Assembly (NCBI GenBank): GCA_023458035.1
Contig: JAEXAX010000034.1
Location: 55,399-119,398 of the forward strand
Reading direction: 5' to 3'
Source of the DNA: Bacillota bacterium
Lineage (GTDB): Bacteria > Bacillota > Clostridia > Lachnospirales > Lachnospiraceae
DNA length: 64,000 nt
Positions 774-52,997 of this stretch are shown here, one piece after another. The notes beneath the pieces were generated by a model. That model saw only the letters and a program-made list of their open reading frames with translations, was not told the DNA's origin and ran no database searches. A program made the translations under genes and the position numbers. Each line of letters starts with the position of its first letter. Position 1 is the first letter of the stretch.

Positions 774-1823
774 ATGTTATTTCATGTATATGGAGAAGGA
801 GCCGCATGGCAATGGCTGGCCATGCTGGGCGTATTGGCCGGCTTGATTGTGTTGAATGAATTTGCCAGACGGACAAAGCTCGGAGGAATCATCATGTTTT
901 GCGTGCTGCCGAGTGTATTGACGATTTATTTCATCGCTATTGCGATCGGCGCCGGCAGCGGAGCCGCCTGGGCGCTTGAAAATCAGACATATCTGTATAT
1001 GAACGGCTGGTTCCATTACGCCAAGCTATACGCTGCGCTGGCCGGTTGTCTGGGCTTTATGATGATCAAATATGAATGGGGCATCGGCCGCTGTCACTGG
1101 TTTAAGGTCTTTCCGTTCGCCATCGTGGCCATCAATATCCTGATCGCCGTAGCCAGCGATTTTGAATCGGCATTTAACGGCTGGTATAGCTGGTGGTTAT
1201 CCAGTGAAGGTGTTTGGCTGTACGGCGGCTGGCACAATGTATTAAACGGCATCGCAGGACTCATCAATATTTTCTGTATGACCGGCTGGTGGGCTGTATA
1301 TTCCTCGAAGGATAAAAAGGATATGATTTGGCCGGATATGATCTGGGTCTATATTATCGTCTATGATGTATGGAACTTTGCATATACATACAATTGTCTG
1401 CCGACTCATTCCTGGTTCTGCGGTGTGGCCCTGCTTTTGGCGCCGACCGTTGCCGCTTTATTCTGGAATAAAGGCGGCTGGATCATGAACCGGGCCAACA
1501 CCCTGTGTATCTGGTGTATGTATGCTCAGATCTTTCCGTTGTTTCAGGAGATTTTCAAAGACGGCAGCAAGACCTTCCCGTGGGCGACACTGCCCGTCCT
1601 CTATGCGGACGGCACCTTAAACGGCATTGCCGTCGGCGGTTCGGCCAATGCCAACCCGACCATGATGACGGTCTGGGCGGCAGCGGCTCTTTTGGTCAAT
1701 GCAGCGGCTCTGGCCTACATCATCAAGGCGGCTGTGATCAGGAAACGCAATCCGTACAAGGGTGAAATTTTTACCGATTTCAGATATTATAAGGAGGCGG
1801 CCGAGAGGGCTGTGGTAAAGTAG
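774..1823 (+). CDS. Multi-pass integral membrane protein of unknown function (Trp-rich)
   Basis: 349-aa ORF with many hydrophobic segments. No catalytic motif recognised. Confidence 0.55.
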   Translation: MLFHVYGEGAAWQWLAMLGVLAGLIVLNEFARRTKLGGIIMFCVLPSVLTIYFIAIAIGAGSGAAWALENQTYLYMNGWFHYAKLYAALAGCLGFMMIKYEWGIGRCHWFKVFPFAIVAINILIAVASDFESAFNGWYSWWLSSEGVWLYGGWHNVLNGIAGLINIFCMTGWWAVYSSKDKKDMIWPDMIWVYIIVYDVWNFAYTYNCLPTHSWFCGVALLLAPTVAALFWNKGGWIMNRANTLCIWCMYAQIFPLFQEIFKDGSKTFPWATLPVLYADGTLNGIAVGGSANANPTMMTVWAAAALLVNAAALAYIIKAAVIRKRNPYKGEIFTDFRYYKEAAERAVVK

Positions 1824-1869
1824 GGGGAGGCAAGCCAACACAAGGGCAAACCAATGCAAGGGGAAACAG

Positions 1870-3648
1870 ATGGAAGGGGAAACCATAAAAAAAGTACCGA
1901 CGCTGAAGCGACAGTTAACCATATTGATGATGCTGGCGTCAGCCTGTAGTCTGCTGACGGCCGGCGCGGCTGTTTTTTATGTGTTCTTTTCCGTGTTTAT
2001 GCAGAAAACCAGGGCGGATATGGAATACGTTTTGCAAAATACCGGCCAGCAGTATCAGGTTCATATGCAATTCATTGAGGACAGCGTTATTTCGATCCGT
2101 CATAATCCCATCTTAGATGATTTTTTTCATAAAGAGGAGTATGACAGGGGCCTGGAAGAGGATCAGTTATCCTACAGCATGGAGTTGTTTTCCGATCGAA
2201 ATATGGTCCAGAGCAAGCGGCCCTTTGTCACCGGTATTTATCTGTTTACCGGGCGGGGGGACTGTCTTTACCGTTTATACTATGCCACCACCCTGGCGGC
2301 AGGGCAGCAGGCACAGGAGCGCTACAGCCGGATGCAGCAGCGGTTTCGGGACAGCGGACGCCAGTATGAATGGATCGCTGAGGAGGATGATCTAAATATC
2401 TGTTTTCGGATCTATGATCATCAGATGCGGGAGAAGGGTATCGGCATCGTTCAGATCAGTCAGGCGGCGGTAGCGGAGATATTCTCGCCTGTGAAGGAAT
2501 ATCAGGACAGCGGCTGGGCGGTGCTGACGGCGGCTGGACAGATCTTGGTCGGTGAGGGCAGCGAAGAACTGTTAAAAAGCTATCAGCAGACAGAAACCGT
2601 CTGGAGCGGCAGTCAAAAGCTTGGAACGAATAAGGTGATCGGTCACGGGGCAAATTGCGGTTTTGGCCTGCGATCGGTGCTGACGGCCTCGGAATCAAAC
2701 GTCTTTGCCATCCTACAGCCGACCATGTGGATTTTGGCCTTTGGCCTGATTTTGGTATTGGTCATTACCTTTATAGTGGCCTACGCGGTCAGTCACCGAT
2801 TCACGAAGCAGGTGACAGGTATCATTGATCGGATTCGGGCCTTCGGTAAGCGGGATTTAAATGCCCGTATGGACGGGGCATCCGTTCAGGAGTTTCAGGA
2901 TATCGGAACGGTTTTCAATGAGATGGCCGACCGGATGCAGTACCTGATCACCGAAGTTTATGAGAAGCAGCTGCTGGCGACCCAGTCACAGGTCAAATAT
3001 CTGCAGTCACAGATAGATCCGCATTTTCAGTTTAACATCCTGGCTATGCTCAGTCTGAAAGCCAAGCTGGCCGGCAATGAGGAGCTGTATCAAGGCTTGC
3101 GTGCCTTTTCCAAACTGATGCAAGGCAAGATTTTTCGCGAACAGGAACTGCATATCCCGGTGCGCGAAGAGCTGGAGATCGTTCGGTTTTATCTATATCT
3201 GCAGAAGAGTCGCTACCAGGAAAAGCTGAGCTATGATATCGTTGTGGAGGATGAGAGTCTGGCGGACTGTCTGATTCCGCGGTTGTTGATAGAGCCATTG
3301 GTGGAAAATGCCGTTTCGCATGGCTTGGAGCCGAAGCGGGAACAGGGGAAGATCAGCCTGCGGCTGTTTCGGGTAACCGCCGCGGACGGGCGGCAGATGC
3401 TGCACATCTGTGTGGAGGATGACGGAGTCGGTATCTCGCAGGAAAAGATGCGGGAGGCGCATCAGGAACAGGATGAATCAGATGGCAGGATCGAGCATAC
3501 TCATACGGGCTTGCAGAACACTCGCCGGATGTTGGAGATATTATACGGAACTGCGCACCGGATGGAGATATGGAGTGAAGAAGGAAGAGGAACCAGAGTA
3601 GAGATCGTGATTCCGGCAGAAATGGAGGGGAACAGATGTGGAAAGTAA
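1870..3648 (+). CDS. Sensor histidine kinase, YesM-like (two TM segments, HAMP, LytS/YehU-type His-kinase, HATPase)
   Basis: Motifs QIDPHFQFN and LIEPLVENAVSHG. An N-terminal TM and a second TM precede a HAMP-like segment. The gene overlaps the downstream response regulator. Confidence 0.85.
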   Translation: MEGETIKKVPTLKRQLTILMMLASACSLLTAGAAVFYVFFSVFMQKTRADMEYVLQNTGQQYQVHMQFIEDSVISIRHNPILDDFFHKEEYDRGLEEDQLSYSMELFSDRNMVQSKRPFVTGIYLFTGRGDCLYRLYYATTLAAGQQAQERYSRMQQRFRDSGRQYEWIAEEDDLNICFRIYDHQMREKGIGIVQISQAAVAEIFSPVKEYQDSGWAVLTAAGQILVGEGSEELLKSYQQTETVWSGSQKLGTNKVIGHGANCGFGLRSVLTASESNVFAILQPTMWILAFGLILVLVITFIVAYAVSHRFTKQVTGIIDRIRAFGKRDLNARMDGASVQEFQDIGTVFNEMADRMQYLITEVYEKQLLATQSQVKYLQSQIDPHFQFNILAMLSLKAKLAGNEELYQGLRAFSKLMQGKIFREQELHIPVREELEIVRFYLYLQKSRYQEKLSYDIVVEDESLADCLIPRLLIEPLVENAVSHGLEPKREQGKISLRLFRVTAADGRQMLHICVEDDGVGISQEKMREAHQEQDESDGRIEHTHTGLQNTRRMLEILYGTAHRMEIWSEEGRGTRVEIVIPAEMEGNRCGK

Positions 3649-24377: not shown

Positions 24378-25073
24378 GTGTTGCAAGTGAGAGATAAAAG
24401 CAATAAAAAATTTTGGAATAAATTTGCCAAGCTGTATGCTCCTTTTATGAAGAAGGATAAAGGAGTTTATGAGAAAGTTTGCAGATATATTTGTCCTTAT
24501 TTGAATAAAAATATGAATGTACTAGAACTTGCTTGTGGTTCAGGGCAACTGTCGTTTAGTCTTTCAAAGCATACTAAAAGTTGGATTGGAACAGATTTTT
24601 CCGAACAAATGTTTTTCCTTTTTCCCAGCTGACAATAGTCACATTGTTGGATTGGAACAGATTTTTCCGAACAAATGATTCTGGAAGCAAGGAAGCGTGG
24701 AGAATATGAAAACCTTATATTTGAAATAGCCGATGCAACATCATTATCTTTTGCAGATGGAAAATTTGATTGTGTGGTAATTGCTAATGCGCTTCATATT
24801 ATGCCTAAACCATATAAGGCAATGAAAGAAATATATAGAGTATTAAAATCCGATGGTATTTTGGTTGCTCCTACTTTTCTCTGGAAAGAGGGAAGGAGAA
24901 GAAAAATTATAAAAAAGATGATGTCCATTTTGGGATTTAGGATGTATCACGAATGGGATAAAAAGCAATTTGAAGATTTTATTGAGGAATATGGATTTTC
25001 AGTAGTTGACATGAAATTGGTACATGGGGGGCTTGCACCGGTTGGTGTGATGATTGCCAAAAGAGTAGCATAA
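24378..25073 (+). pseudogene. Class I SAM-dependent methyltransferase interrupted by a 66-bp in-frame insertion/duplication that carries a stop
   Basis: ORFs 24378..24632 and 24675..25073 are in the same frame. Motif VLELACGSGQ (SAM motif I). A 31-nt sequence is duplicated at 24581-24611 and 24647-24677 with 35 nt of filler containing TGA. Confidence 0.75.
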
Positions 25074-25292
25074 CAGATTTTATTCTTGTGAATAAAAATT
25101 TCATACAAATGGTTATCAAAGGCGATAGAGAAAAACGATCGTCTTTTTGCAAATTATATAGAGAAATTGCAACAAGAAAACAGAGGACGAACACCACAGG
25201 TAAAGAAGAACGAGTTAGACCTATAAAACTATTTGAAAAATGATATAATAAAATAATAAATAAGTATTTGATTTTTGGAGGTGCTTAAATTT

Positions 25293-25712
25293 ATGAATGA
25301 AAGAGAGAAAATCGTTCGTTTATGGTTTGATATGTGGCTTGCACAACAAGATTTAGGAATTGATGATATTTTTTCGGATGATGTAATTTATATTGAGAGT
25401 TGGTGTCCTAAGTATGAAAATCGTAAAATAGTAAAGCACTGGTTTAATGAATGGAATACAAGAGGAAAAGTTCTTGCGTGGGATATAAAGCAATTTTTTC
25501 ATAAGGATAATCAAACTATTGTAGAATGGCACTTCAAAAATAAAATGAATGAGGGGAAAGTTGAAGAATTTGACGGTATTTCTTTGATTGTTTGGACAGC
25601 TGATAATAAGATAAAGGCATTAAAAGAGTTTGGCTGTAATTGTAATCACTACAATCCTTACAAAGAGAGTGAAACTCCCTTATTTAGAGAAGAAAAAGTA
25701 AATTGGTTTTGA
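25293..25712 (+). CDS. SnoaL/NTF2-like small protein
   Basis: ~140 aa with a Trp/acidic-rich pattern (LWFDMW...VIYIESW) typical of the SnoaL-like fold. RBS GGAGG lies before the ATG at 25293. Confidence 0.55.
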   Translation: MNEREKIVRLWFDMWLAQQDLGIDDIFSDDVIYIESWCPKYENRKIVKHWFNEWNTRGKVLAWDIKQFFHKDNQTIVEWHFKNKMNEGKVEEFDGISLIVWTADNKIKALKEFGCNCNHYNPYKESETPLFREEKVNWF

Positions 25713-25722
25713 GGTAATTACT

Positions 25723-26091
25723 ATGGATATAAATAGATTTTTCAAAACGGTTTTATCACAAAATGCAGAAGAACTTAGGAAATTTTTTCAAAAGAATGCC
25801 GTTATAAAATGGCATTGCACAAATGAGTTATTTACCTTGGATGAGTATATAAGGGCAAATTGTGAATATCCGGGGAATTGGAACGGAGAAATAGAGAGAA
25901 TTGAAGAAAATATAGATACTGTTATTTTAGCTTGTCGAGTTTTTCCGACAGATAATAGTGAATCTTTTCACGTAGTAAGTTTTATTCATTTTGAGGATAA
26001 TTTGATTATTGAAATGGATGAATATTGGTCTGATGATGGATTGGCACCGGAGTGGCGTAAGAAAATGAAAATCGGAAAACGCATTAGGTAA
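25723..26091 (+). CDS. NTF2-like small protein (second paralogue-like gene)
   Basis: 122-aa ORF with size and composition similar to the preceding gene. Confidence 0.45.
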   Translation: MDINRFFKTVLSQNAEELRKFFQKNAVIKWHCTNELFTLDEYIRANCEYPGNWNGEIERIEENIDTVILACRVFPTDNSESFHVVSFIHFEDNLIIEMDEYWSDDGLAPEWRKKMKIGKRIR

Positions 26092-26114
26092 ATAATAATT
26101 TGAATGGAAATAAT

Positions 26115-26330
26115 ATGGATGATATAACAAAAAAATTAAACATGAGGAGCAGAGAAGAAGTGGTTATGTTCTTAAAAAGTATGTGGTCAGATGCTCCGAA
26201 GCCTTGCCCTTTATGTGGTGGAAAGTTAGATTATTTTCATAAGAAAGCTAAAAGGAGTAATTCGGATTGGATTTGTATAGATTGTAAAACTCATTTTGAC
26301 GCAATAAAAATCTTAAAAGAGCTTGATTGA
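26115..26330 (+). CDS. Small zinc-ribbon protein, unknown function
   Basis: CPLCGG...CIDCK double CxxC motif. No clear RBS, so the start is uncertain. Confidence 0.35.
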   Translation: MDDITKKLNMRSREEVVMFLKSMWSDAPKPCPLCGGKLDYFHKKAKRSNSDWICIDCKTHFDAIKILKELD

Positions 26331-26476
26331 AATAATCAATTTTATATTACAAACGCTACAAAAAATCCCGACGGCACAGGGCAGCCGGGAGCGGATATGA
26401 AAGTTTTACTTTTACAGATAGGGCATAACAGCCATTCCGTTAGTATCCATCTTCACCACGTCCTTTTAATCATAAT

Positions 26477-26615
26477 CAGCGTATCTTAACCAAGCTATTG
26501 TTAATCAATCCTAAAGTACTTATCCCCAATAAACTGATTACGCCCCCTAAATTGAATATCACTTTTCCTGTAATACCACTTGCAAGTGCAGGAACAGACC
26601 ACGGAATATATTCAT
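26477..26615 (-). pseudogene. 3'-terminal fragment of a membrane (permease-like) gene
   Basis: The minus-strand frame reads ...YEYIPWSVPALASGITGKVIFNLGGVISLLGISTLGLINNSLVKIR*, with no upstream continuation. Confidence 0.25.
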
Positions 26616-26619
26616 AAAG

Positions 26620-26757
26620 GAATTAGAAAAGCAAGAGCTTATAACAGAGTTTGATAAAAATGTATGGCTTAGCATGGTAGACTACCTTACAGTTCATCGT
26701 GATGGAAAGATTGAATTTACATTTTTTGATGGCAGCCAGGTAAAATTAAATAGATAG
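26620..26757 (+). pseudogene. C-terminal tail fragment of a large serine recombinase
   Basis: Reads ELEKQELITEFDKNVWLSMVDYLTVHRDGKIEFTFFDGSQVKLNR*. This is the characteristic extreme C-terminus of Tn4451/TndX-type large serine recombinases. There is no upstream catalytic part. Confidence 0.5.
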
Positions 26758-26836
26758 AAAACCAAACAGGCACTTCACTCAAATTTGAGATAAACTAATT
26801 ATAAATATATTTTCTATAGTAAAAACGTATTTAATG

Positions 26837-26972
26837 TGCTATAATCAAAGCAATCAAAATATATTAGTGAGGATAAAAAGTGGCTAATGGCACTTGGTAC
26901 TTGACGATTTGGAATATATAATTTGATCATAAGATTAGGTCAGGAAGCATACGATGCCCTGGCCATTTTTTT
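26837..26972 (+). other. Orphan cassette: extended -10 promoter, 13-codon mini-ORF, intrinsic terminator (candidate small RNA/peptide)
   Basis: TGcTATAAT at 26837-26845. GAGGA followed by GTG at 26880, encoding MANGTWYLTIWNI* (to 26921). Hairpin GGTCAGG/CCTGGCC at 26938-26964 followed by T7. Confidence 0.35.
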
Positions 26973-27080
26973 GTGGAGAGCAACAATGAAAGAATATAGC
27001 ACTCCAAGCCGATCGCCAAGGTATCAAATTGATATTTTGGGAAAACTAAAAAACATTGGATTATAAACGGAGAAAAGTAT

Positions 27081-27593
27081 ATGAGTGATAAAATGGATGT
27101 TTCATCATTATCAGATCGATACCTTGTTCAAATGATGGGGGAGTCTGATGTTGAGAGAATATATGAATTGTGTCGAAAAAATGCCCTATACTATCAATAT
27201 TGCCCTCCGTATGTATCTGAAGAGAGTATTATTTGCGATATGAATGCACTGACGCCGAACAAAGACATGCGGGACAAATATTATATTGGATATTACGATG
27301 AGGAAAGATTGATTGCAGTAATGGATTTAATCATGAATTTCCCGGATGAAGCAACGGCCTTTATAGGGTTCTTTATGACAGATGTGGCGATACAGAACAC
27401 AGGGGTCGGCAGCGGAATAATAGAGGATTTATGTGAGCGTCTTACTAAGATAGGAATTTCCAAGGTACGTCTTGGATGGGTAAAAGATAACCCTCAGGCA
27501 GAGCACTTCTGGCATAAGAATAAATTTGCAGAAACAGGGGATTTTTGTGATACAGATAAATATACAGTAATTGTTGCTCAAAGATATTTGTAA
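27081..27593 (+). CDS. GNAT family N-acetyltransferase
   Basis: 170 aa with the acetyl-CoA-binding motif VAIQNTGVGSGII. Confidence 0.8.
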   Translation: MSDKMDVSSLSDRYLVQMMGESDVERIYELCRKNALYYQYCPPYVSEESIICDMNALTPNKDMRDKYYIGYYDEERLIAVMDLIMNFPDEATAFIGFFMTDVAIQNTGVGSGIIEDLCERLTKIGISKVRLGWVKDNPQAEHFWHKNKFAETGDFCDTDKYTVIVAQRYL

Positions 27594-27618
27594 ATCAGAT
27601 TTTCTGGAGGTGCGAGGT

Positions 27619-27838
27619 ATGGCTTCAAGTAAACAATATTTAGATTTCATTTTAGGACAACTATCCCAAGTTGGAAGAAATAACATATAGATCAATGATG
27701 GGCGAATATATTGTTTATTATCATGGGAAAATTATTGGTGGAATTTATGATGATAGGTTTTTAGTTAAGTCTGTTAAATCTGCAATAGCATATATGTCAA
27801 ACAAAATCCGAGTGAGGAGAATTCCTTTAGATAATTAA
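27619..27838 (+). pseudogene. TfoX N-terminal-domain gene, frameshifted
   Basis: MASSKQYLDFILGQLSQ... stops after 23 codons. The family sequence continues in another frame (MMGEYIVYYHGKIIGGIYDDRFLVKS...). Confidence 0.55.
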
Positions 27839-27849
27839 AACTTAATCAG

Positions 27850-28355
27850 TGGGTAGAACAAGCAATCCGTTGGATGCCAATGGAGAAATGAGATGCTTGC
27901 TCATTTGCAGTAAATGAAGATGAACTTGAAGGAAGAGTCTGTTATGGAGGACTTAACCTATCATCCACAACAGAATCACCGCCTTTGTTTTAGTCTTTCT
28001 ATGGCAAAGGCAAGGCTTTATTCAAACCACTGAAGGGAATGTGGTTCACTATGGATATATAGAAACTTTCATTGAAAAGCCAGGAGAAAGATTCAACATC
28101 AGAGAAATTGCCTTTGATAGATGGGGAGCAGCTCAGATGGTGCAGAACTTAGAGAATATGGGCTTTATCGGAGTTCCTTTTGGACAAGGCTTTAAGGATA
28201 TGAGACCACCAACGAAAGAACTGATGAAACTAATTCTGGAGCAAAAATTAGCACATGGTGGAAATCCAGTACTTCACTGGATGATGGATAACATCTTTAT
28301 AAGGATGGATCCTGCCGGAAATATCAAAGCAGATAAGGAAAAATCAACAGGGTAG
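27850..28355 (+). pseudogene. Phage terminase large subunit, C-terminal remnants (multiple frame breaks)
   Basis: Fragments ...VCYGGLNLSSTTE... and ORF 28041..28355 with IAFDRWGAAQMVQNLENMGF...HGGNPVLHWMMDN, typical of the Terminase_1 C-terminal nuclease domain. The N-terminal ATPase part is absent. Confidence 0.6.
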
Positions 28356-28482
28356 TGTCAAGATTCTTTCGCAAATTCATTTCTTGGCCGCCGGCATACT
28401 TTTGAGCCATACGGGACGGGGCATGATTCCGAAGCATAATGGTTGTGGCAGCGTAAAGGTTTGTTAAGAGCAAGTATCGACC

Positions 28483-28830
28483 ATGGTTGAAAGTATTCGC
28501 TCAATAGAATACAATAAAGGAGATCTTCTAATGTGTGAAGGTGGAGCGTATTTTGGAAGAACAGCGATTTGGAATTTTAATTATGATATTTGCTTTCAAA
28601 ATCATGTGCATAGGGTACGGCCATATTTAAATGTTGATTTAATGTATTTTTACTATGTTTTCTATTTTTATCAAAATACGGGTATGATACAATCAAAAGG
28701 AATAGCTATGCCTAGATTATCTTCTATATTGCATGAAATGGTAATTCCATTGCCAACACTAGAAGAACGGCATCGTATAGTCGCCAAAATAGAAGAGATG
28801 ATTCCATATTGCGATAAATTGATAAAGTGA
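28483..28830 (+). pseudogene. Type I restriction-modification specificity subunit (HsdS), C-terminal fragment only
   Basis: Target-recognition-domain/conserved-helix pattern (GDLLMCEGGAYFGRTAIW...FQNHVHRVRP...LPTLEERHRIVAKIEEMIPYCDKL). No hsdM or hsdR nearby. Confidence 0.6.
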
Positions 28831-28859: not shown

Positions 28860-29570
28860 ATGGAGACATTTAATGATTTTTTGTCTACAGCGCGCACTGA
28901 TCGTTTTAGACAATTAAATGTATATAAAGATAAGGATTATCTAGTAGATGATAAATATCGCATGACTGAAAATGTTACGATGTCATATTATGGTGAATAT
29001 GGATGTCAAGTATCATTGAGGGATTTCTATTTTTATATTACTGAAAGCAAAGGAAATGCATACTATTCTGTAATAGAATTATATCAGCTGTTAGATCGGA
29101 TTGTTCAAAAAGAGGGATATGATTTCGTGATAAACCTCTTACGAGAAATTGAAAAAGCAGGAGTAGCAAGAAAGCACGAAGATTATATTATATATAGAGG
29201 AATTCGATATAGTGTTAGAACTCATGTTGAACCTATTGTTGATGGTGAAATAGAAATACTTGATGGCTCGATATCATTAAATTATAAGAAGCTTACAGGA
29301 TTATTGATTTTAATACAAGAAAAAAGCAACTATTTTTGGAATAGTAAAAAAGCAAACAAGAAATATAAAGATGGGCTGTTAAGATTATTTATAGCGCTTA
29401 TCACCTTACATCAGGATCATCCAGTATTAGAGAACAAGGGATGGAAATATTCTATTGAAGAGGATAAGTTTAAGTACGTCGGTAAATTTTCATCTGATGA
29501 AAAAAAAGCCAAGCGAGTTTATTATTTGACGAAAGGAGAACTTGATGATATTATGTCATCAGAATCCTAG
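28860..29570 (+). CDS. Hypothetical protein (236 aa), no recognisable domain; directly upstream of the reverse-transcriptase locus
   Basis: Intact AT-rich ORF with RBS AGGAGA. Its last ~45 nt contain the predicted ncRNA promoter and the a1 repeat. Confidence 0.55.
   Translation: METFNDFLSTARTDRFRQLNVYKDKDYLVDDKYRMTENVTMSYYGEYGCQVSLRDFYFYITESKGNAYYSVIELYQLLDRIVQKEGYDFVINLLREIEKAGVARKHEDYIIYRGIRYSVRTHVEPIVDGEIEILDGSISLNYKKLTGLLILIQEKSNYFWNSKKANKKYKDGLLRLFIALITLHQDHPVLENKGWKYSIEEDKFKYVGKFSSDEKKAKRVYYLTKGELDDIMSSES
29526..29554 (+). promoter_or_regulatory. Sigma-70-type promoter predicted to drive the ncRNA and RT transcript
   Basis: TTGACG (29526-29531), 17-nt spacer, TATTAT (29549-29554). The predicted +1 at about 29561 coincides with the first base of the a1 repeat. 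Confidence 0.45.
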
Positions 29571-29717
29571 TATTCGTCGATGACGAAGTGATGATAAGGA
29601 GTTTTAATCGAGTGTCGGATAAGTCAAGTGTTTGATCCGTTCGCTTTTCCCGCTCGCGGCGTATGCTCGCGGGGCTCACTCTTCAACCCCTTGCCTCATT
29701 CTACACTGTAGGATTCT
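29561..29717 (+). ncRNA. Candidate retron msr-msd non-coding RNA
   Basis: 9-bp inverted repeat AGAATCCTA (29561-29569) / TAGGATTCT (29709-29717). A G at 29570 follows a1 directly (candidate branching G). Hairpin TTCGTC-gat-GACGAA at 29573-29587. A ~60-nt core (29636-29695) is about 65% G+C in an otherwise AT-rich island. T-tract at 29717-29722. The RT ATG is at 29728. Confidence 0.45.
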
Positions 29718-29727
29718 TTTTTATACC

Positions 29728-31704
29728 ATGAAAAAATATAGATTACTTAATAAGATAACAATTAAACGACCGATAGTTTTTTTGTGTGGACCATATTATA
29801 GGAAATCAGACGATGACCGACGAAAAATCTTAAAAGATTATCTAATAAATACAGAGAAAGATACAAAGAAACGATGCTTGCCGTTGATTATTGATGATTT
29901 TATGTCAGAAGACAAAATTCAAGATTCGACGATTAACGTTCAACTTATGGAAGAGATATTTGCTGCAGTTTCATATCGAACATATATCTTTCTTGATACT
30001 ATTTCGACAGCTGCCGAGTTGGGTATTTTTGCTAACAGCGCATACAGTAATTCCTTAAAAATTTATCTGCCCAAATATGATGATATTTATAATAAAAGTA
30101 ATGTTGGGTATTTCGTACGTAGTGGAGTGCTAAGGGAAGATTCATCACTAATAGATGTTCTTGAATATCGACCAAAGATACAGAGAAAAGCAATTGCTAC
30201 TGATTATATAGTTGAATACTATGGCTTTGTAAATGATGAATTACCTGAAAACATAAAAATTGATATTGATGATGATAAAGGGATAGGAAGCCAATCTTAT
30301 TCTATTGATATTAAAAATCTGAATTCTAGACCTACAACTTTTAATCAGATTTGCTATTTTGATGATGGCTCCTCATTAAATATAAAAACTTCGTTAAAGC
30401 TTTTGTTTTATACGACGTTGGCAATTGTTTATCCTGAATATCATGATTTTTTTGTGAGGAAGGATAACGACTTTTCAAAGATTGATATATCAATTGTTAC
30501 TAAGAAGGTTAAGGAAGCATATGTCAGTCTTATAGCAACAAACCATATTATTGGTGCATATAAAGATACTGATATAAAAATAGAAACAGCATTAAATGTT
30601 GAGCATAATGAAGAATTAATTAGGCATATTGTTAAGTTTCTTCATTTATTTAATACAGAGTCAGATTACACGAATACATATCTATTTACTAATCCAGAAG
30701 GTATGTTAATAGAAACTCTTGATGATAAAAAGTTTTTACACGATATTATTTCATTTTCAGGAGAACAAATAAATCTTTTGAATTCAATAATAACTGAGCC
30801 TGGGAAGTATTATGAAAAGATTATAGTAACCAAGGGCAAGAAAAAACGTGAAATAGTTAAATATAAAGAAACTCGAGATGGTGAAGATGCTAGAAGGTTT
30901 CACGAGTACATTGTAGATACGCTTTCTCAGAAATATATGCCCCATAATGCTTCATATGCGTATCATAAGAATGTGGGGATTAAAAATTGTGTGTTGGCAC
31001 ATATTTCTAGCAATAGTTTTATTAAATTCGATATAAGAAAATTTTTTAACAGCATTACAATTAAGGTTGCAGAAAATGCGTTAATGAGGGAGTTTAATAT
31101 AACAGAAAAAAATAGCAAATTAGTAAAGACAATATTGTCAATGTGCTTCTTTGAGAATAAAATGCCACTTGGTTTAGTTGGGTCTCCACTAATTTCAGAT
31201 ATCGTGATGAAATCATTCGATGAAAATATAGCTTTTTTTGCTCATGAAAACAATTTGCTGTATACTCGCTACGCGGACGATATGATGTTTTCTTCTTCTC
31301 AAGACATTTCAGATGAAATTTATTTGGCAGTTGGATCTATTGTTAAGGCGGAACTACAAGAACTTGGTCTTAAGCTCAATGAGGATAAAACACAGGTTGT
31401 TTCTTTTGATGATAAGCATTCTTTTGTAAAATATATAGGTGTTGCTATTGTAAAGGGTTCCAAGGGGAATTTTCTTTCTGTTGGAAAGGAATATATTTTT
31501 GAGACAGCCAAAGAATATCTTGAGTATCAGAGAAAATATTCTGAATCAGAATTGGACTCAGAAGATAAATTTTATGCGCAGAAGAGATTGATAGGCAGAA
31601 TTGGGTATATCAAACATATAGAAGGTAATCGTGGAATAAACAGATTAAAACAACGGTTGTCTAAATATGTTGATCTGCAAGCTAACCCGGATTTAGTGAT
31701 ATAG
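29728..31704 (+). CDS. Retron-type reverse transcriptase with an N-terminal nucleoside 2-deoxyribosyltransferase-like (NDT-like) domain and an uncharacterised middle region (658 aa)
   Basis: RT motifs: YYEKIIVTKGKKKREI, FIKFDIRKFFNSI (nt 31027-31047), LGLVGSPLISDIV, RYADDMMFS (YADD at nt 31270-31281), LKLNEDKTQVV. The C-terminal GRIGYIKHIEG...L..LSKY resembles retron RT tails. N-terminus: IVFLCGPYY ... IFLDTISTAAELGIFA, an NDT-like G-rich start plus a D...T..ELG motif. Confidence 0.8.
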   Translation: MKKYRLLNKITIKRPIVFLCGPYYRKSDDDRRKILKDYLINTEKDTKKRCLPLIIDDFMSEDKIQDSTINVQLMEEIFAAVSYRTYIFLDTISTAAELGIFANSAYSNSLKIYLPKYDDIYNKSNVGYFVRSGVLREDSSLIDVLEYRPKIQRKAIATDYIVEYYGFVNDELPENIKIDIDDDKGIGSQSYSIDIKNLNSRPTTFNQICYFDDGSSLNIKTSLKLLFYTTLAIVYPEYHDFFVRKDNDFSKIDISIVTKKVKEAYVSLIATNHIIGAYKDTDIKIETALNVEHNEELIRHIVKFLHLFNTESDYTNTYLFTNPEGMLIETLDDKKFLHDIISFSGEQINLLNSIITEPGKYYEKIIVTKGKKKREIVKYKETRDGEDARRFHEYIVDTLSQKYMPHNASYAYHKNVGIKNCVLAHISSNSFIKFDIRKFFNSITIKVAENALMREFNITEKNSKLVKTILSMCFFENKMPLGLVGSPLISDIVMKSFDENIAFFAHENNLLYTRYADDMMFSSSQDISDEIYLAVGSIVKAELQELGLKLNEDKTQVVSFDDKHSFVKYIGVAIVKGSKGNFLSVGKEYIFETAKEYLEYQRKYSESELDSEDKFYAQKRLIGRIGYIKHIEGNRGINRLKQRLSKYVDLQANPDLVI

Positions 31705-32827: not shown

Positions 32828-32886
32828 GTAGCACGAACAGCATAACAGCCGCACGCCCCTTCATGTAACACCGGAAAGAGGTGACT

Positions 32887-34563
32887 ATGTTTACACAGAA
32901 TATTGCATGGATCGGCAGTACAGCAGAGGGAAAACGTGTTTCGATTTTACCGAGAATGGCGAACCGCCATGGCTTGATCGCCGGCGCCACCGGTACCGGT
33001 AAGACCATTACTTTAAAGGTGCTGGCTGAGGCGTTCAGTGATATGGGAGTGCCGGTGTTTCTGGCGGATGTCAAGGGAGATGTTTCCGGTCTGATGCAGC
33101 CGGGTGAGGACAGTCCGAAGCTGCAGGAACGTATCAGCCGTTTCGGTCTGGCGGAAGCCGGTTTTGCCTACCGCGGTTATCCGGTGACAGTGTGGGATAT
33201 CTACGGGCAGAACGGTGTGCCGCTCAGAACCACCATTTCGGAGATGGGGCCTTTATTACTGGCGCGCATTCTGCAATTAAATGATCTCCAAAGCGATATC
33301 CTCGGCATCGTTTTTAAGATCGCCGATGATGAAGGTTTATTGCTGTTGGATACCAAGGATCTGAAGGCCATGCTGAACTGGGTGGATGAGCATCAGAAGG
33401 AGCTGGCGCCGACCTATGGCAAGATGTCGACAGCCTCATTGGGCTCTATCACAAGAGCGGTGGTAGCGTTGGAAATGCTCGGCGGAGATATCTTCTTCGG
33501 TGAACCCGCCCTGAACATTCGTGACTGGTTTACCACTTCTACGGATGGTCGAGGCATGATGCAATTATTAAATTCCGAGAGTCTGATCAATAATCCGGCT
33601 CTTTATGCTACCTTCTTATTATGGCTGATGTCGGAATTATTTGAAACCCTGCCGGAGGTCGGAGATATGGAGAAGCCGAAGATGGTCTTTTTCTTTGACG
33701 AAGCCCACTTGCTTTTCGCCAATGCGCCGAAGCCGTTGTTGGATAAGATAGAGCAGGTGGTGAAGCTGATTCGCTCTAAGGGTGTGGGCATCTATTTCTG
33801 TACACAGAATCCGCGTGATATTCCGGATGGTGTGCTGGCTCAGCTGGGCAATCGGATCGAGCATGCCCTGCGGGCCTATACACCGGCTGATCAGAAGGCG
33901 GTACGGGCGGCGGCTGATTCCTTTAGAGTCAATCCGGCCTTTGATACCTATGAGACCATCATGGCCCTCGGAACCGGTGAGGCGGTCGTTTCCTTTTTGC
34001 AGGAAGACGGTACGCCGGGCATGGCCGAGAAGGTGGCGATCTTACCGCCGCAGAGTGCCATGAAGGCAGCCGATCCGGCATTGCGCACGCAGGCCGTTCA
34101 GGGAACGCTGGCATATACCAGATATGCGACCGCTGTCGATTCGGATTCGGCTTATGAGATATTACAGCGTCTGGGAATAGAGGAAGAGGCTGCCGCCGAG
34201 CAGCAGCGTCAGGCCGAAGCTCAACAGAAAGAACAGGCAAAGGCAGAGGCATTACAGGCCAAGCAGGCGGAAAAGTATGCAGTACTGCAGGCCAAGCTGC
34301 AGGCTCAGCAGGAGGCCGCACAGCAAAAGCTGCTGCTAAAGCAACAGGAAATGGCTGCCAAGCAGGCGGAAAAAGAAGCTGCCGCCGCTGCCCGGGTTCG
34401 TGAGCGGGCGGTGAAGTCGGTCGGCAACAGTGTGGTCGGCACCGTCGGTCGTGAGATGGGCAAGCAGTTGGGTAAGGGCTTTGGTTCCTTTGGCAAGACC
34501 CTGGGTGGAAATGTCGGCGCCAGCCTTGGCCGCGGCTTATTCAGCACCCTGTTTAAACGATGA
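32887..34563 (+). CDS. HerA/DUF853-family P-loop ATPase with a Gln/Ala/Glu/Lys-rich C-terminal tail
   Basis: Walker A GATGTGKT and Walker B-like VFFFDEAH. C-terminal low-complexity coiled-coil-like region. Confidence 0.7.
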   Translation: MFTQNIAWIGSTAEGKRVSILPRMANRHGLIAGATGTGKTITLKVLAEAFSDMGVPVFLADVKGDVSGLMQPGEDSPKLQERISRFGLAEAGFAYRGYPVTVWDIYGQNGVPLRTTISEMGPLLLARILQLNDLQSDILGIVFKIADDEGLLLLDTKDLKAMLNWVDEHQKELAPTYGKMSTASLGSITRAVVALEMLGGDIFFGEPALNIRDWFTTSTDGRGMMQLLNSESLINNPALYATFLLWLMSELFETLPEVGDMEKPKMVFFFDEAHLLFANAPKPLLDKIEQVVKLIRSKGVGIYFCTQNPRDIPDGVLAQLGNRIEHALRAYTPADQKAVRAAADSFRVNPAFDTYETIMALGTGEAVVSFLQEDGTPGMAEKVAILPPQSAMKAADPALRTQAVQGTLAYTRYATAVDSDSAYEILQRLGIEEEAAAEQQRQAEAQQKEQAKAEALQAKQAEKYAVLQAKLQAQQEAAQQKLLLKQQEMAAKQAEKEAAAAARVRERAVKSVGNSVVGTVGREMGKQLGKGFGSFGKTLGGNVGASLGRGLFSTLFKR

Positions 34564-49611: not shown

Positions 49612-50316
49612 TCAGCTAAAATTTTTGATTTTTGTCTCAATCTCTTGTGCCAATAACTTTGCAGTGGTTGAACTAAAATGTGCTCCGTCCACAGTCTGAT
49701 TCAACCCTCTCATGCTTGCAAACCATTCTTTACTCTTGGGAAATAAAGTCATTACCATAGCATCGGTTATCCTCGTTAAAAAACTCCACTTCCAGCTATA
49801 CGCTTTCCTTTCTTTTGGTAAGGTATCCATCTGTAATTTGTAAATATCAATAAAATCAAATCCATACTTCTCGCATAGAAGCATTATTTTTTGGTTTCTT
49901 CTAATTATAATATCATTAGGAAACTCATTTAAATTTATATATGGCATTCCGATTATAATAGCTTTTTTACCGTTTGAAATTATCACATTCATTAAAGTTT
50001 CGAACCTACTTAAAAACTCTAAATCATCCTCTATACATTTTTTGATTTTACATCGAATAGACATTTGGAGTTTCCAATAAAAATCAACCTTTTTAAGATA
50101 GGGAAGCAATGTATCATTTGTTCCAATGCCAAGAATAACAAAATCAAAATCATTACCATGATTCTTGAAAATCTTTTCCAGACGATTACTTACTCCCCAC
50201 AAAGTATCCCCATTTAACCCTTTATTGATTGTTACTATATTTTTAGATAAAAATGAAACATAAGAATATCCCACGTTTCCATATGTTAAACTATCTCCAA
50301 TACATAAAATTTTCAC
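49612..50316 (-). CDS. SGNH/GDSL-family hydrolase
   Basis: N-terminal block ILCIGDSLTYGN, then GxND (LGIGTNDT). C-terminal DGAHFS resembles the DxxH catalytic block. Confidence 0.75.
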   Translation of the reverse strand: MKILCIGDSLTYGNVGYSYVSFLSKNIVTINKGLNGDTLWGVSNRLEKIFKNHGNDFDFVILGIGTNDTLLPYLKKVDFYWKLQMSIRCKIKKCIEDDLEFLSRFETLMNVIISNGKKAIIIGMPYINLNEFPNDIIIRRNQKIMLLCEKYGFDFIDIYKLQMDTLPKERKAYSWKWSFLTRITDAMVMTLFPKSKEWFASMRGLNQTVDGAHFSSTTAKLLAQEIETKIKNFS

Positions 50317-50388
50317 TACTATCTCCTATATAAATTCTAATTTGTTTTACTCGCTGTTTGTAATATTATACAATATTTTCAATTAGTT

Positions 50389-51849
50389 TTACAGGTCTAA
50401 TTCTTGTTTCTTTGCCTGTGTTATTTCTCTGTTTTCTTGTTGTAATTTCTCTATACAGCTTCTTACACTTTCAGCTTGTTCAACCTCTTTTCGTATATCT
50501 ATAATTTGAGAATACAGACTGTCTTTTTCTTTCTTAAAGGCTGTTACTTCCGATTTCCATTTGGATATATTTAAGGACTTGCTTTCTCCTAAATGTTCTT
50601 TCAAATATTTCTTCGCACTTTCAAATAAAATAATCTCTGCGGTATGCTCGTTGTAAAAATCTTCCTGTTTGCGTTTCTTTAATTTAGCATAGGCTTTGTA
50701 GGTATCTTTATGTTTCAAATACTTTTCTGCTTGGTCAACAAGTTTAATTTTATCATCAATGCTCTTCTCGGTGTTTTTGATAGTTCTTGTAGTCGTATAG
50801 GTCTTATCTCGTAATGTCGATATGCTTTCTTTCAGTTCTGATAGGGAGGTGGTATTTTTCTCTTTTAGGTACTCATAGCTTTCAATATACTCTTCTAAGT
50901 CTGCGTTATTCTTATCTGCATTTTTACGGATAAGATTTTCAAAGACGGATAGCAGATTTTCTTTAGGTGGGAGGGTGGATTTGAGATTATCAGTTTCTAC
51001 TTTTTCCTCTTTTCCAGTTTCCCCTATCCAATTTAGCAAGGCTTTTATTCTTCTTGCTATTTCTCTTAATATCTTGTTTTGATGTTTGATTTCTCGGTTG
51101 ATGTTTCCTCTGTCGGTGGTTATGCCTTTCTTTTCCATTTGACTTGCCGATACTCCTAAATGAATGGTCGGTATTTGCTTTATGCCTTGCCTTTGAAAAG
51201 AACGGTGATCCACTTTTTCCTGTATATTGTTTTCTTCCAAATATTTGTTGGTAATATCTGCCCATGCTTTTCGCCACTCTTCTGCTTTTTCTTGCTCATT
51301 CCAATCGACTGTATTGATTTTTTTGGTTTTGTAATTTCCGTTTTTGAGTTTTACTTTTTCTCCGTTTTCATCAAGGATATATTCTTTTTTTGATTTTGCT
51401 CCCCATGTTGTATCTTCGTTGAACGGTCGCATGGTAAGTAAGATATGAGCGTGTGGGTTTTCGTCATTTTTATCGTGTAGGGCAATATCGGCACACATAC
51501 CGACATTTACAAAATTTTCTTTTACATATTCCCTAACAAGTTCTATCTGTTTTTCTCGGTCTAATTCTTGGGGTAGGGCAATTTCTATTTCTCTTGCAAG
51601 CTGTGAGTTTTTACTTTTTTCGATTTTCTCCACGCTATTCCATAATGTTCCCCTGTCCGAAAACTCCTGTGGTGCGTTTTGAGGTAATAGAATTTCGGTA
51701 TGGGATATTCCTCCTTTTCTTGTAAAGTCATGGACTATGCCGTCATATTCGTTTTTTATCTTCTCGCCACTTCGATAGGCGGAAGCTGCAACTGCACTTT
51801 TGCCTTTGCCTCTTGAGATAATTTTGATACTGAGATGATATATTGCCAT
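50389..51849 (-). CDS. MobA/MobL (MOBQ-type) relaxase
   Basis: MAIYHLSIKIISRGKGKSAVAASAYRSGEK (catalytic Tyr region) and the HDKNDENPHAHILL histidine triad. Coiled-coil C-terminus. Confidence 0.85.
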   Translation of the reverse strand: MAIYHLSIKIISRGKGKSAVAASAYRSGEKIKNEYDGIVHDFTRKGGISHTEILLPQNAPQEFSDRGTLWNSVEKIEKSKNSQLAREIEIALPQELDREKQIELVREYVKENFVNVGMCADIALHDKNDENPHAHILLTMRPFNEDTTWGAKSKKEYILDENGEKVKLKNGNYKTKKINTVDWNEQEKAEEWRKAWADITNKYLEENNIQEKVDHRSFQRQGIKQIPTIHLGVSASQMEKKGITTDRGNINREIKHQNKILREIARRIKALLNWIGETGKEEKVETDNLKSTLPPKENLLSVFENLIRKNADKNNADLEEYIESYEYLKEKNTTSLSELKESISTLRDKTYTTTRTIKNTEKSIDDKIKLVDQAEKYLKHKDTYKAYAKLKKRKQEDFYNEHTAEIILFESAKKYLKEHLGESKSLNISKWKSEVTAFKKEKDSLYSQIIDIRKEVEQAESVRSCIEKLQQENREITQAKKQELDL

Positions 51850-51926
51850 AAGAGAACACCTCCTCTCTTTTTCTGATACTTTGATGTGGCGATGGATAAG
51901 ACTTCCTAAAAAAATCGGATTGCTTT

Positions 51927-52997
51927 TTATCCGATTTCTTTTGGGAAGTACACAAGGGGTACCTTATTGTTCTTGTGTATGGTGCGTATGTGCATTTTTG
52001 TACCGCAATCTTTACAGTACATCAGTCCCGATAATGGGTGGATTTCTCCATCTCCGTTCGGTCTTTTTACCGGTGCATTTTTTAATATCCGTTGTACATT
52101 TTCATAGGTACTTCTATCTATGATTGGCTCGTGTACATCAGGGATTATTTGCCACTTGTCTTTATCTACATAATGGTTTCGCTTATCTTTATAATGCTTT
52201 TCAGTTTTGAAGTTGACTACATCGCCACAATACTCCTGTCTTTTCAGTATGCGTGTTAAGGTTGCTTTGTTCCAGTTATAGCGATTTTCTTCATTCAGCT
52301 TTCTGTTTTTCGCCGTTCCTCTGTCTTGCTGTTTCATATAAAAGGTTGGGGTTAGTATTTCTTTATCTTTCAAGTAAACAGCTATCTGATTGCGATTTTT
52401 CCCCACCATAAAGAGTGTAAAAATGAGTTTTACGACTTCGGCAGCTTCTTTATCGATGATCCAATAATCTTTGTTGCTTGGGTCTTTGATATAGCCGTAT
52501 GGGGCTTCTGTTGCGACAGGCTTTCCGCTTGCTCCTTTGGTCTTAATGCCTGTTGTTACTTTCTTGCTGATGTCCCTTGCATACCACTCGGACATAATAT
52601 TGATAAAGGGAGCAAATTCCAATGTATTTTGGTCTTGGCTGTCGATACCGTTATTGATAGCAATAAAGCGTACATTGTTTCTTCTGAATATCTCCATAGC
52701 GTTCCCAACTTGAAGATAATCTCGTCCCCATCTTGTCATATCTTTCATAATGACTATGCCGATTTTTCCGCTCTCCACATCGCTTATCATCTGTGTGTAA
52801 GCACTACGGTCAAAGAAGCGACCGCTTTCATCATCGTCGATATAGTGGCGAATGTTCATCAGCTTATGCTGTTTTGCATACCGTTCTAAGAATGCCTTTT
52901 GATTTACGATACTGTTGCTCTCGCCACCGTCCCTATCCTCATCACCAACTGAAAGGCGGGAGTATAGCGCAGTGATTTTGGTTGCATATTCCATCAT
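51927..52997 (-). CDS. Large serine recombinase, apparently truncated at the C-terminus (356 aa; ends inside the zinc-ribbon region)
   Basis: Resolvase catalytic domain (ALYSRLSVGDEDRD..ESNSI..Q), recombinase domain, and the first half of the zinc ribbon (YCKDCGTKMH). No coiled-coil or C-terminal region. Confidence 0.75.
   Translation of the reverse strand: MMEYATKITALYSRLSVGDEDRDGGESNSIVNQKAFLERYAKQHKLMNIRHYIDDDESGRFFDRSAYTQMISDVESGKIGIVIMKDMTRWGRDYLQVGNAMEIFRRNNVRFIAINNGIDSQDQNTLEFAPFINIMSEWYARDISKKVTTGIKTKGASGKPVATEAPYGYIKDPSNKDYWIIDKEAAEVVKLIFTLFMVGKNRNQIAVYLKDKEILTPTFYMKQQDRGTAKNRKLNEENRYNWNKATLTRILKRQEYCGDVVNFKTEKHYKDKRNHYVDKDKWQIIPDVHEPIIDRSTYENVQRILKNAPVKRPNGDGEIHPLSGLMYCKDCGTKMHIRTIHKNNKVPLVYFPKEIG

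Follow-up and report, generated by a model that had tools for sequence, protein, structure and literature searches.

The stretch analysed here, referred to as the window, comprises 64,000 nucleotides from the metagenome-assembled genome of a Bacillota bacterium of the family Lachnospiraceae (GenBank assembly GCA_023458035.1, contig JAEXAX010000034.1, positions 55,399 to 119,398 of the forward strand). Positions 28860-31704 of the window probably constitute a complete retron, composed of a partner open reading frame (ORF-A), an msr-msd noncoding RNA (ncRNA) and a single gene in which a nucleoside 2'-deoxyribosyltransferase (NDT)-like domain and a middle domain are fused to a reverse transcriptase (RT). 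By analogy with Retron-Eco1, the system would work as a restrained toxin. The initial annotation had proposed a possible 'single-polypeptide' retron defence system at this site and had missed both the retron ncRNA directly upstream of the fusion gene and the conserved partner gene ORF-A. The features of the locus are listed in Table 1.

Table 1. Coordinates of the predicted retron features in the window, with the evidence used to define them.
Feature	Position	Strand	Evidence
ORF-A, conserved 236-aa partner	28860..29570	+	Co-occurrence, dN/dS, AlphaFold2 model
Promoter: -35 TTGACG (29526-29531), 17-nt spacer, TG-extended -10 TATTAT (29549-29554)	29526..29554	+	Consensus scan, 10/12
Retron ncRNA (msr-msd), whole element	29559..29722	+	Covariance model R1
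a2 inverted repeat AGAATCCTA	29561..29569	+	Reverse complement of a1, covaries
Candidate branching (priming) guanosine, directly 3' of a2	29570	+	Invariant in 10/10 aligned loci
msr stem-loop TTCGTC-GAT-GACGAA, 6 bp	29573..29587	+	100% paired in 10 loci
msd long hairpin, predicted msDNA template	29613..29705	+	Arms 29613-29636 and 29682-29705; conserved apex 29637-29681
a1 inverted repeat TAGGATTCT, then T-run	29709..29717	+	Reverse complement of a2
Fusion gene, 658 aa: NDT-like effector domain, middle domain and retron RT	29728..31704	+	Family-invariant residues all kept
NDT/N-glycosidase-like domain, residues 1-140; catalytic-candidate E97 (codon 30016-30018)	29728..30147	+	Profiles, Foldseek, hhalign
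Middle domain, residues 141-344, beta-rich then helical, acidic (pI 4.9)	30148..30759	+	AlphaFold2 model, dN/dS
Retron-type RT domain, residues 345-658	30760..31704	+	RVT_1, RT_II-A, retron_St85_RT, PDB, Ec86 alignment

Domains and relatives of the fusion protein

The fusion ORF spans 29632-31704 on the forward strand from a TTG start, and the ATG at 29728 (MKKYRLL...) yields exactly 658 residues. Translation of this ORF returned all the motifs previously attributed to it, each in its expected place: FLCGP (residues 18-22), AAE97LG, FDIRKFFNSI, GSPLIS, RYADD (514-518), LNEDKTQ and YIG (569-571), followed by the C-terminal tail GRIGYIKHIEGNRG, which had also been quoted correctly. The start coordinate quoted earlier for the region, 29526, does not mark the start of the gene; it coincides with the -35 box of a promoter-like site (29526-29554). 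Pfam RVT_1 matched residues 406-574 (E = 6.5e-22), and this match together with more than 120 clusters of full-length homologues indicates that the fusion gene stands far above chance.

The landmarks of the RT domain are YADD (31270-31281), CVLAH as region X (residues 421-425) and YIG as region Y. In PADLOC, the best 25 matches were retron RT models without exception, the highest scores being those of RT_II-A (131 bits), RT_III-A (125 bits), Ec107-like (119.5 bits) and I-B (119 bits). In NCBIfam, retron_St85_RT ranked first (2.9e-40) with a score under the NCBIfam cut-off (138 vs 235 bits), followed by group II maturase (2.5e-15) and Drt2 (1.8e-11). Similar results were observed when the family profile was compared with PDB sequences, where the first 15 matches were retron RTs (Kva2, Ec78, Ec83, Ec67, Eco8 and Ec86; E 1e-26 to 1e-18) and the group II and defence-associated reverse transcriptase (DRT) enzymes ranked after them. 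With the best matches in all three collections being retron RTs and the group II intron and DRT enzymes far behind, the earlier assignment to the retron type was supported.

Placement of the RT relied on calibrated hidden Markov model (HMM) bit scores. True members scored 350-400 bits on the models of their own types (locus L046 on II-A, 376; Ec86 on II-A, 402; locus L020 on I-B, 351). The 131 bits of the window RT on RT_II-A, compared with 376-402 in true II-A members, are not at member level. Judged by these scores, the RT belongs to the retron clade with type II-A as its nearest relative and lies outside every modelled type, because bona fide members reach 350-400 bits. Alignment of the RT with the Ec86 RT (E = 1e-14) showed that YTRYADD is common to both, that NATPH corresponds to CVLAH with only the His kept, and that VTG is replaced by YIG with only the Gly kept, the latter as noted in the initial annotation.

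With an HMM of the RT domain, the fusions and their split relatives (see below) scored 150-435 bits and every other retron locus compared scored at most 123 bits, which separates the two groups. The nearest stand-alone RT to the family by this HMM (L015, 3968-6917; 176 bits) has no NDT-like neighbour and is followed by a 679-residue protein matching the PADLOC 'mad2' model (E = 1.6e-21), which is possibly a different effector paired with a related RT.

At the N-terminus, residues 9-107 matched PADLOC NDT_II-A (E = 1.3e-8) and the module also matched NCBIfam STM3845_fam ('retron St85 family effector', E = 1.1e-9); none of the Pfam NDT families was significant on this domain. An AlphaFold2 model of residues 1-350 was built from a 34-sequence alignment (predicted local distance difference test score (pLDDT) 84.8, predicted template modelling score (pTM) 0.86). 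In a Foldseek comparison with the PDB, this model came closest to chains 7xjg_J (probability 1.00) and 8qbl_E (0.99) of the Ec86/Eco1 effector. Next in rank were DNPH1/Rcl, MilB and BcmB, which are CMP N-glycosidases, and nucleoside 2'-deoxyribosyltransferases (probabilities 0.9-0.99, TMt 0.5-0.6). When the family was aligned with the Eco1 effector (Ec86 locus, E. coli) by hhalign (E = 8.4e-5), VFLCGP paired with IFLCGG, and the invariant E97 paired with the catalytic E106, which is the mutated position of structure 8qbl, an 'inactive effector (E106A)'. The modelled domain thus combines the Rossmann-like fold of the NDT superfamily with an invariant Glu. It is the best-conserved part of the fusion protein, with the lowest ratio of nonsynonymous to synonymous substitution rates (dN/dS, 0.05-0.08). 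The matches to NDT_II-A and STM3845_fam, the Foldseek results and the E97-E106 pairing bear out the NDT-like module recognized earlier, of the type II retron effector kind, and the model indicates that residues 1-140 are an NDT/N-glycosidase-like domain whose fold is closest to the Retron-Eco1 effector. The sole match of the N-terminal 150 residues to PDB sequences, DotB (E = 1.1), was rejected as spurious.

The region between the two modules, described earlier as an unassigned linker of ~220 residues, is instead a folded and conserved domain under purifying selection (dN/dS 0.08-0.13), which belongs to the effector gene in unfused relatives. AlphaFold2 modelled it confidently, with a beta-rich part preceding a helical one, and HMM searches showed that it is kept across the family. 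No credible match to residues 150-360 was found in Pfam, PADLOC, NCBIfam or PHROGs. Likewise, no profile, hhalign or Foldseek match connected the middle domain with the C-terminal half of the Eco1 effector; the two may be related but too far diverged for a match to be detected.

A search of 5.8 billion clusters gave 137 matches, of which ~120 were 636-706 residues long with 97-100% query coverage and 34-100% identity. Named homologues (Butyrivibrio, Hungatella and Fusibacter) are annotated just as 'reverse transcriptase domain-containing protein'. Full-length fusions were found in species-representative genomes of Lachnospiraceae, other Clostridia and Bacilli (L001-L014), and identical copies were present on two metagenome contigs independent of each other. 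The dN/dS values of 0.05-0.15 over all parts indicate purifying selection.

Four distant relatives carry separate effector and RT genes: L017 and L026 (Anaerovoracaceae), L025 (Saccharibacteria) and L018 (Erysipelotrichaceae). In these split loci, an effector of 351-422 residues, consisting of the NDT-like and middle domains, abuts or overlaps a downstream RT of ~310-320 residues; the best RT model there is RT_II-A, with a margin of 20-25 bits, and the match to NDT_II-A is as strong as E = 2e-19. They resemble the window in the homologous effector modules followed by a homologous RT and in a structured RNA, closed by the inverted repeats a1 and a2, directly upstream. They differ from it in having two genes, in lacking a detectable ORF-A and in an ncRNA that is unmatched by the covariance model R1 described below. 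Since these relatives keep effector and RT as separate, abutting or overlapping genes, the simplest reading is that the fusion arose by ORF merger from a two-gene, type II-like ancestor with the order ncRNA, effector, RT.

The ncRNA and its predicted promoter

The spacer between ORF-A and the fusion gene (29571-29727, 157 nt) is GC-richer than its surroundings and visibly structured. The layout expected of a retron ncRNA, with a1 and a2 around msr and msd and a G at the 3' end of a2, was found here with a 9-bp a1/a2 helix and the invariant G29570. The a2 repeat overlaps the stop codon of ORF-A, whose TAG ends on this candidate branching G. The G is presumably equivalent to the one that follows a2 at the same position in Ec86.

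Comparison of ten loci supported the structure. The msr stem contained one compensatory pair (C-G to U-A) and G-U variants, and the arms of the long hairpin shared no sequence across the loci and yet remained complementary. RNAalifold predicted 37 pairs, 24 of them with compensatory double changes, and 21 of the 22 long-stem pairs varied on both sides. In a pairing test, 89.4% of cells were paired, compared with 39-51% when the partner was slid by 1-3 columns, and no shuffle out of 500 reached the observed covariation score. The closing helix also covaries: GAATCC pairs with GGATTC in most loci, and AAATCC with GGATTT in L007-L009. The support for the ncRNA structure therefore comes from the comparison across loci and not from a single-sequence fold.

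The covariance model R1, built from the ten locus sequences, detected a single site in the window (139.6 bits, E = 7e-24). It also recovered loci on which it had not been trained, namely L081-L083 (127-136 bits), L006 (76 bits) and L012 (36.5 bits). R1 had no match in the Ec86 locus, in any split locus or in ~55 other retron loci. A scan of 22-34 kb against Rfam (E ≤ 1) returned no family, msr included.

In all 13 loci compared, the -35 element TTGAC(A/G) was invariant and was followed at 17-nt spacing by a TAnnnT -10 element ending 6-8 nt before a2, the distance being 6 nt in the window itself. From its sequence and position, the promoter is predicted to drive transcription of the ncRNA and probably also of the fusion gene.

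The C-terminal codons of ORF-A (29520-29570) coincide with these elements. The invariant YYLT encodes the -35 TTGACG via Leu-Thr, D-I-M/I encodes the -10, and the final E-S-stop codons (GAATCCTAG) encode a2 and the candidate branching G. Because the codons double as promoter and a2, the conservation of the ORF-A C-terminus may reflect in part a constraint at the DNA or RNA level.

The msd apex (29637-29681) and its equivalents in relatives form the sole conserved block inside the msd (TCGC...GC.T..GCTC, GC-rich). By analogy with the Dcm site in Ec86 msDNA, the apex could be the target of a phage trigger, or it could be a contact site for the effector or ORF-A.

In the window, L001, L002 and L081-L083, the fusion ATG is not directly preceded by a Shine-Dalgarno sequence, and the nearest AGGA lies in a1, 14 nt upstream. 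GGAG or GGAGG is present before the fusion start in L004-L007 and L010. With AGGA inside a1 and no nearer Shine-Dalgarno sequence, the fusion might be translated in a manner dependent on a1/a2 pairing or on reverse transcription. Expression of ORF-A, folding of the ncRNA and translation of the fusion from the Shine-Dalgarno-like AGGA may be mechanistically coupled. Some homologues have been called with 678-706 residues, extended upstream into the ncRNA (for example P0002; L081, 5001-5066; MLAGLTPQILASFSTVGFFFYAMKKY...); these N-terminal extensions are almost certainly annotation artefacts overlapping msd and a1.

ORF-A, the proposed mode of action and its alternatives

ORF-A homologues occupy the same position and strand in all 15 loci of the Clostridia clade with upstream DNA, and in the Bacillales locus L012. 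They end ~130-170 nt before the fusion gene in most loci and 288 nt before it in L003. Pairwise blastp E-values ranged from 1e-4 to 1e-101, the weakest pairs involving L012, and an ORF-A HMM matched 16 ORFs and nothing else in 84 loci. Homologues were found in none of ~60 other retron loci, and the Bacilli fusions L011, L013 and L014 and the split loci likewise yielded no detectable ORF-A. With hhalign, the upstream ORFs of L013 and L025 gave no match to ORF-A, and that of L017 was merely suggestive (E = 0.005, probability 7%). Between the window and its three closest relatives (L081-L083), ORF-A, the spacer and the fusion gene are shared, and the other neighbours differ. ORF-A keeps its family-invariant residues and has a dN/dS of 0.08-0.10.

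An exhaustive HMMER scan of 1.84 billion representatives found 96 relatives of ORF-A, in length classes of ~230 and ~350 residues. The AlphaFold2 model of ORF-A was very confident (pLDDT 90.8, pTM 0.88). Foldseek gave no meaningful match to it (best probability 0.15 in the PDB and 0.16 in BFVD), and no match was found in Pfam, PADLOC, NCBIfam or PHROGs. Weak matches of ORF-A and of residues 150-360 of the fusion to LmuB/DUF4297 (E = 0.004), VipD_C, CLU_N and Pneumo_M2 were dismissed as chance. The position of ORF-A, preceding the ncRNA and with a stop codon that falls within a2, is that of the effector gene in Ec86; hhalign detected no similarity between ORF-A and the Eco1 effector. ORF-A is most likely an obligate accessory of the Clostridia clade, acting as a sensor, an adaptor or a nucleic-acid-binding subunit.

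In Retron-Eco1, the RT and its multicopy single-stranded DNA (msDNA) bind and restrain the N-glycosidase effector, which hydrolyses NAD(P)+, and the trigger is methylation of the msdDNA by phage Dcm (PMC12673091; bioRxiv 10.1101/2023.08.16.553469). On this model, the promoter in the last ORF-A codons would transcribe the ncRNA and the downstream fusion gene. The a1 and a2 repeats would pair, and the RT domain would prime from the 2'-OH of the invariant G29570 and copy the msd hairpin into an msDNA of ~90-100 nt. The RT-msDNA would hold the cis-tethered N-glycosidase-like effector inactive, as in Retron-Eco1 and Retron-Sen2, until phage interference with the msDNA by modification, degradation or binding freed the effector domain. 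The freed domain would then hydrolyse NAD(P)+ or nucleotides via E97, and the infected cell would be arrested (abortive infection). ORF-A would act as a clade-specific accessory subunit.

Several observations weigh against this proposal. Production of msDNA, toxicity and phage defence are each predicted by analogy. The fold matches of the N-terminal domain had modest E-values (from 7.5e-3) with only ~150 columns aligned, and the STM3845_fam match was under its curated cut-off (38 vs 100 bits). The retron consensus motifs NAxxH and VTG are replaced by CVxxH and YIG, though the positions are present in the alignment with the Ec86 RT. Folded alone, the window ncRNA was not significantly stable (z = -1.5), and its msd stem contains ~3 uncompensated mismatches in comparison with the perfect stem of the 76%-identical L082, some of them shared with L083. 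The acidic middle domain shows no similarity to the msDNA-binding C-terminal domain of the Eco1 effector, which makes the proposed restraint by msDNA less certain.

An alternative that would still leave a retron is that ORF-A is the true toxic effector or a co-effector, with the NDT-like domain serving the RT as a non-catalytic module that senses nucleotides or ligands or acts as a scaffold. The Ec86-like position of ORF-A, its strict linkage to the clade and its strong constraint speak for this, and NDT/SLOG-type folds often bind nucleotides rather than cleave them. We consider it unlikely, given that E97 and the FLCGP, DRR and EE motifs are invariant and the NDT-like domain is the most constrained part of the protein. 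Moreover, the NDT-like module occurs without a detectable ORF-A in the L011, L013 and L014 fusions and the split relatives, indicating that ORF-A is dispensable for the basic design.

The chance that the locus is a decaying or non-functional remnant appears small. Its neighbours in the degraded island are fragments (TerL, HsdS, TfoX and a split methyltransferase), the msd stem carries the mismatches relative to L082, and the fusion ATG lacks a directly preceding Shine-Dalgarno sequence. On the other hand, both ORFs are full length with all family-invariant residues kept, the dN/dS values are 0.05-0.15, and the promoter, a1/a2, G and msr hairpin are intact; the layout without a Shine-Dalgarno sequence and some of the stem mismatches are common to close relatives.

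A defence RT outside the retrons, such as an abortive infection (Abi), UG or DRT enzyme, a diversity-generating retroelement (DGR) or a group II intron, with an unrelated upstream structure such as a terminator or riboswitch, is very improbable. The weak secondary matches to the Drt2 and group II intron maturase models and the non-canonical NAxxH and VTG motifs would fit it, but retron models and retron PDB chains ranked ahead of those of group II and DRT enzymes by over 10 orders of magnitude. Upstream lies an RNA laid out as a1/a2, G, msr and msd with covariation, and neither intron RNA domains, DGR template and variable repeats nor an Rfam match was found.

That an ordinary type II-A retron was fused only by a frameshift, a sequencing or an assembly error is scarcely credible: the best models are RT_II-A and NDT_II-A and split relatives exist, but the artefact was refuted by more than 120 independent clusters in many genera (~655 residues, 97-100% coverage), by identical fusions on independent contigs and by the calibrated RT score (131 bits vs 376-402 in true II-A members, and under the NCBIfam cut-offs); the locus also differs by its own ncRNA family and by an additional conserved gene.

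Comparison with known retrons and genomic surroundings

Retron-Eco1/Ec86 (II-A3) and Retron-Sen2/St85 (II-A1) share with the window a retron-clade RT, an msr-msd ncRNA that has a1/a2 repeats and a G following a2, and an effector with an NDT/N-glycosidase-like N-terminal domain carrying FLCG(P/G) and the E-L-G-x-F catalytic-loop motif; Retron-Sen2 also has the order ncRNA, effector, RT. The window differs from both in that effector and RT form one polypeptide, that the RT reaches about one third of member-level bits, that ORF-A is an additional gene, that CVxxH stands for NAxxH and YIG for VTG, and that the hosts are Gram-positive anaerobes. Its ncRNA family is distinct as well, because R1 had no match in the Ec86 locus.

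In the classification of retrons into 13 types, RT fusions are C-terminal (I-C, VII-A1, XI and XII), apart from II-A2, where the DNA-binding domain of the effector alone is fused to the RT N-terminus (PMC7736814). Type II-A2 therefore resembles the window in carrying part of a type II effector on the RT N-terminus, whereas the fusion in the window takes in the entire effector with its NDT domain. The II-A2-like PADLOC model PDLC02940 matched the fusion through the RT part only (108 bits). In types I-C (Eco2, RT-Toprim), VII-A1 (RT-DUF3800), XI (RT-protease) and XII (RT-TIR), the effector is also covalently joined to the RT; there it is C-terminal, belongs to another enzyme class and needs no additional protein gene, in contrast to the N-terminal, NDT-like effector of the window accompanied by ORF-A.

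The fusion has the NDT-like N-terminal effector domain of type II-A. Neither a separate effector nor a fusion of the DNA-binding domain alone was found, the whole effector being fused in more than 120 clusters. The system is thus type II-like, yet departs from II-A in its RT model score and in lacking a separate effector; a C-terminal DNA-binding domain was not recognizable either. No published description of a complete NDT-RT fusion or of an ORF-A-like partner was found in the 13-type classification or in the later surveys and structural papers searched, and literature searches aimed at a 'type XIV', NDT-RT fusions and new metagenomic retron clades did not yield this architecture. The earlier remark that the architecture is not recognizable as a described system accordingly stands, no published or modelled subtype with the full fusion having been found. 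The system is arguably a new retron subtype or type, and not categorically new. A broader claim, made here tentatively, is that it represents an unclassified retron type of Gram-positive anaerobes, in which a cis-tethered N-glycosidase toxin, carried on the N-terminus of the RT that would produce its msDNA antitoxin, is combined with the orphan-fold ORF-A as a new kind of sensor or adaptor.

The toxin-antitoxin logic of retrons is known from separate effectors (Eco1, Sen2 and Eco7) or from a C-terminal fusion (Eco2). Together with its two-gene relatives, the NDT-RT fusion family offers a natural experiment on the control of a covalently linked toxin by msDNA and on the evolution of the fusion, and ORF-A brings into retron biology a confidently folded protein without known relatives. 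Members of the family are common among Lachnospiraceae of gut and rumen and among other Bacillota, hosts that are under-represented among characterized retrons. HMM-based defence finders probably miss or mislabel it, since its scores fall under their thresholds and they look for RT and effector in two separate genes. A compact retron native to Gram-positive hosts, with a defined ncRNA, could also serve retron-based genome editing.

The fusion gene lies at the right edge of an AT-rich island (~24.0-31.9 kb) with a GC content of 0.30-0.36, compared with 0.50-0.60 in the flanks. The initial annotation had called it the only intact large gene in a decayed island. This holds roughly for genes above 300 residues, given that TerL, HsdS, TfoX and the methyltransferase are fragments, and fails for the adjacent 236-residue ORF (28860-29570), which is intact and part of the system. 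The remnants (24378-28830) comprise an S-adenosylmethionine-dependent methyltransferase split into 24378-24632 and 24675-25073, a TfoX_N fragment (27671-27838), a fragment of the TerL nuclease domain (28041-28355) and half of an HsdS (28483-28830). Intact small genes within the island encode two SnoaL_2 proteins, a Zn-ribbon protein and a GNAT protein (27081-27593). No integrase was seen in the island upstream of the retron, and a tRNA scan found no tRNA in the window as an integration site.

A gene of host GC content encoding a HerA-like NTPase (DUF87/HerA_C, 32881-34563) flanks the island. In L082, a HerA-like gene (1339-3003) also flanks the 76%-identical system, on the opposite side, and the two may mark a shared insertion hotspot for such islands. 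The L082 retron is further adjoined by SLFN_AlbA_2/HATPase_c_4 and AAA_13 genes, surroundings that look like a defence island. A second AT-rich patch of the window (49612-52997, minus strand) has a GC content of 0.31-0.41 and inverted skews. Its genes code for a GDSL lipase, a 356-residue serine recombinase and a MobA/MobL relaxase (E = 1e-101), and the patch is probably a small integrative mobilizable element.

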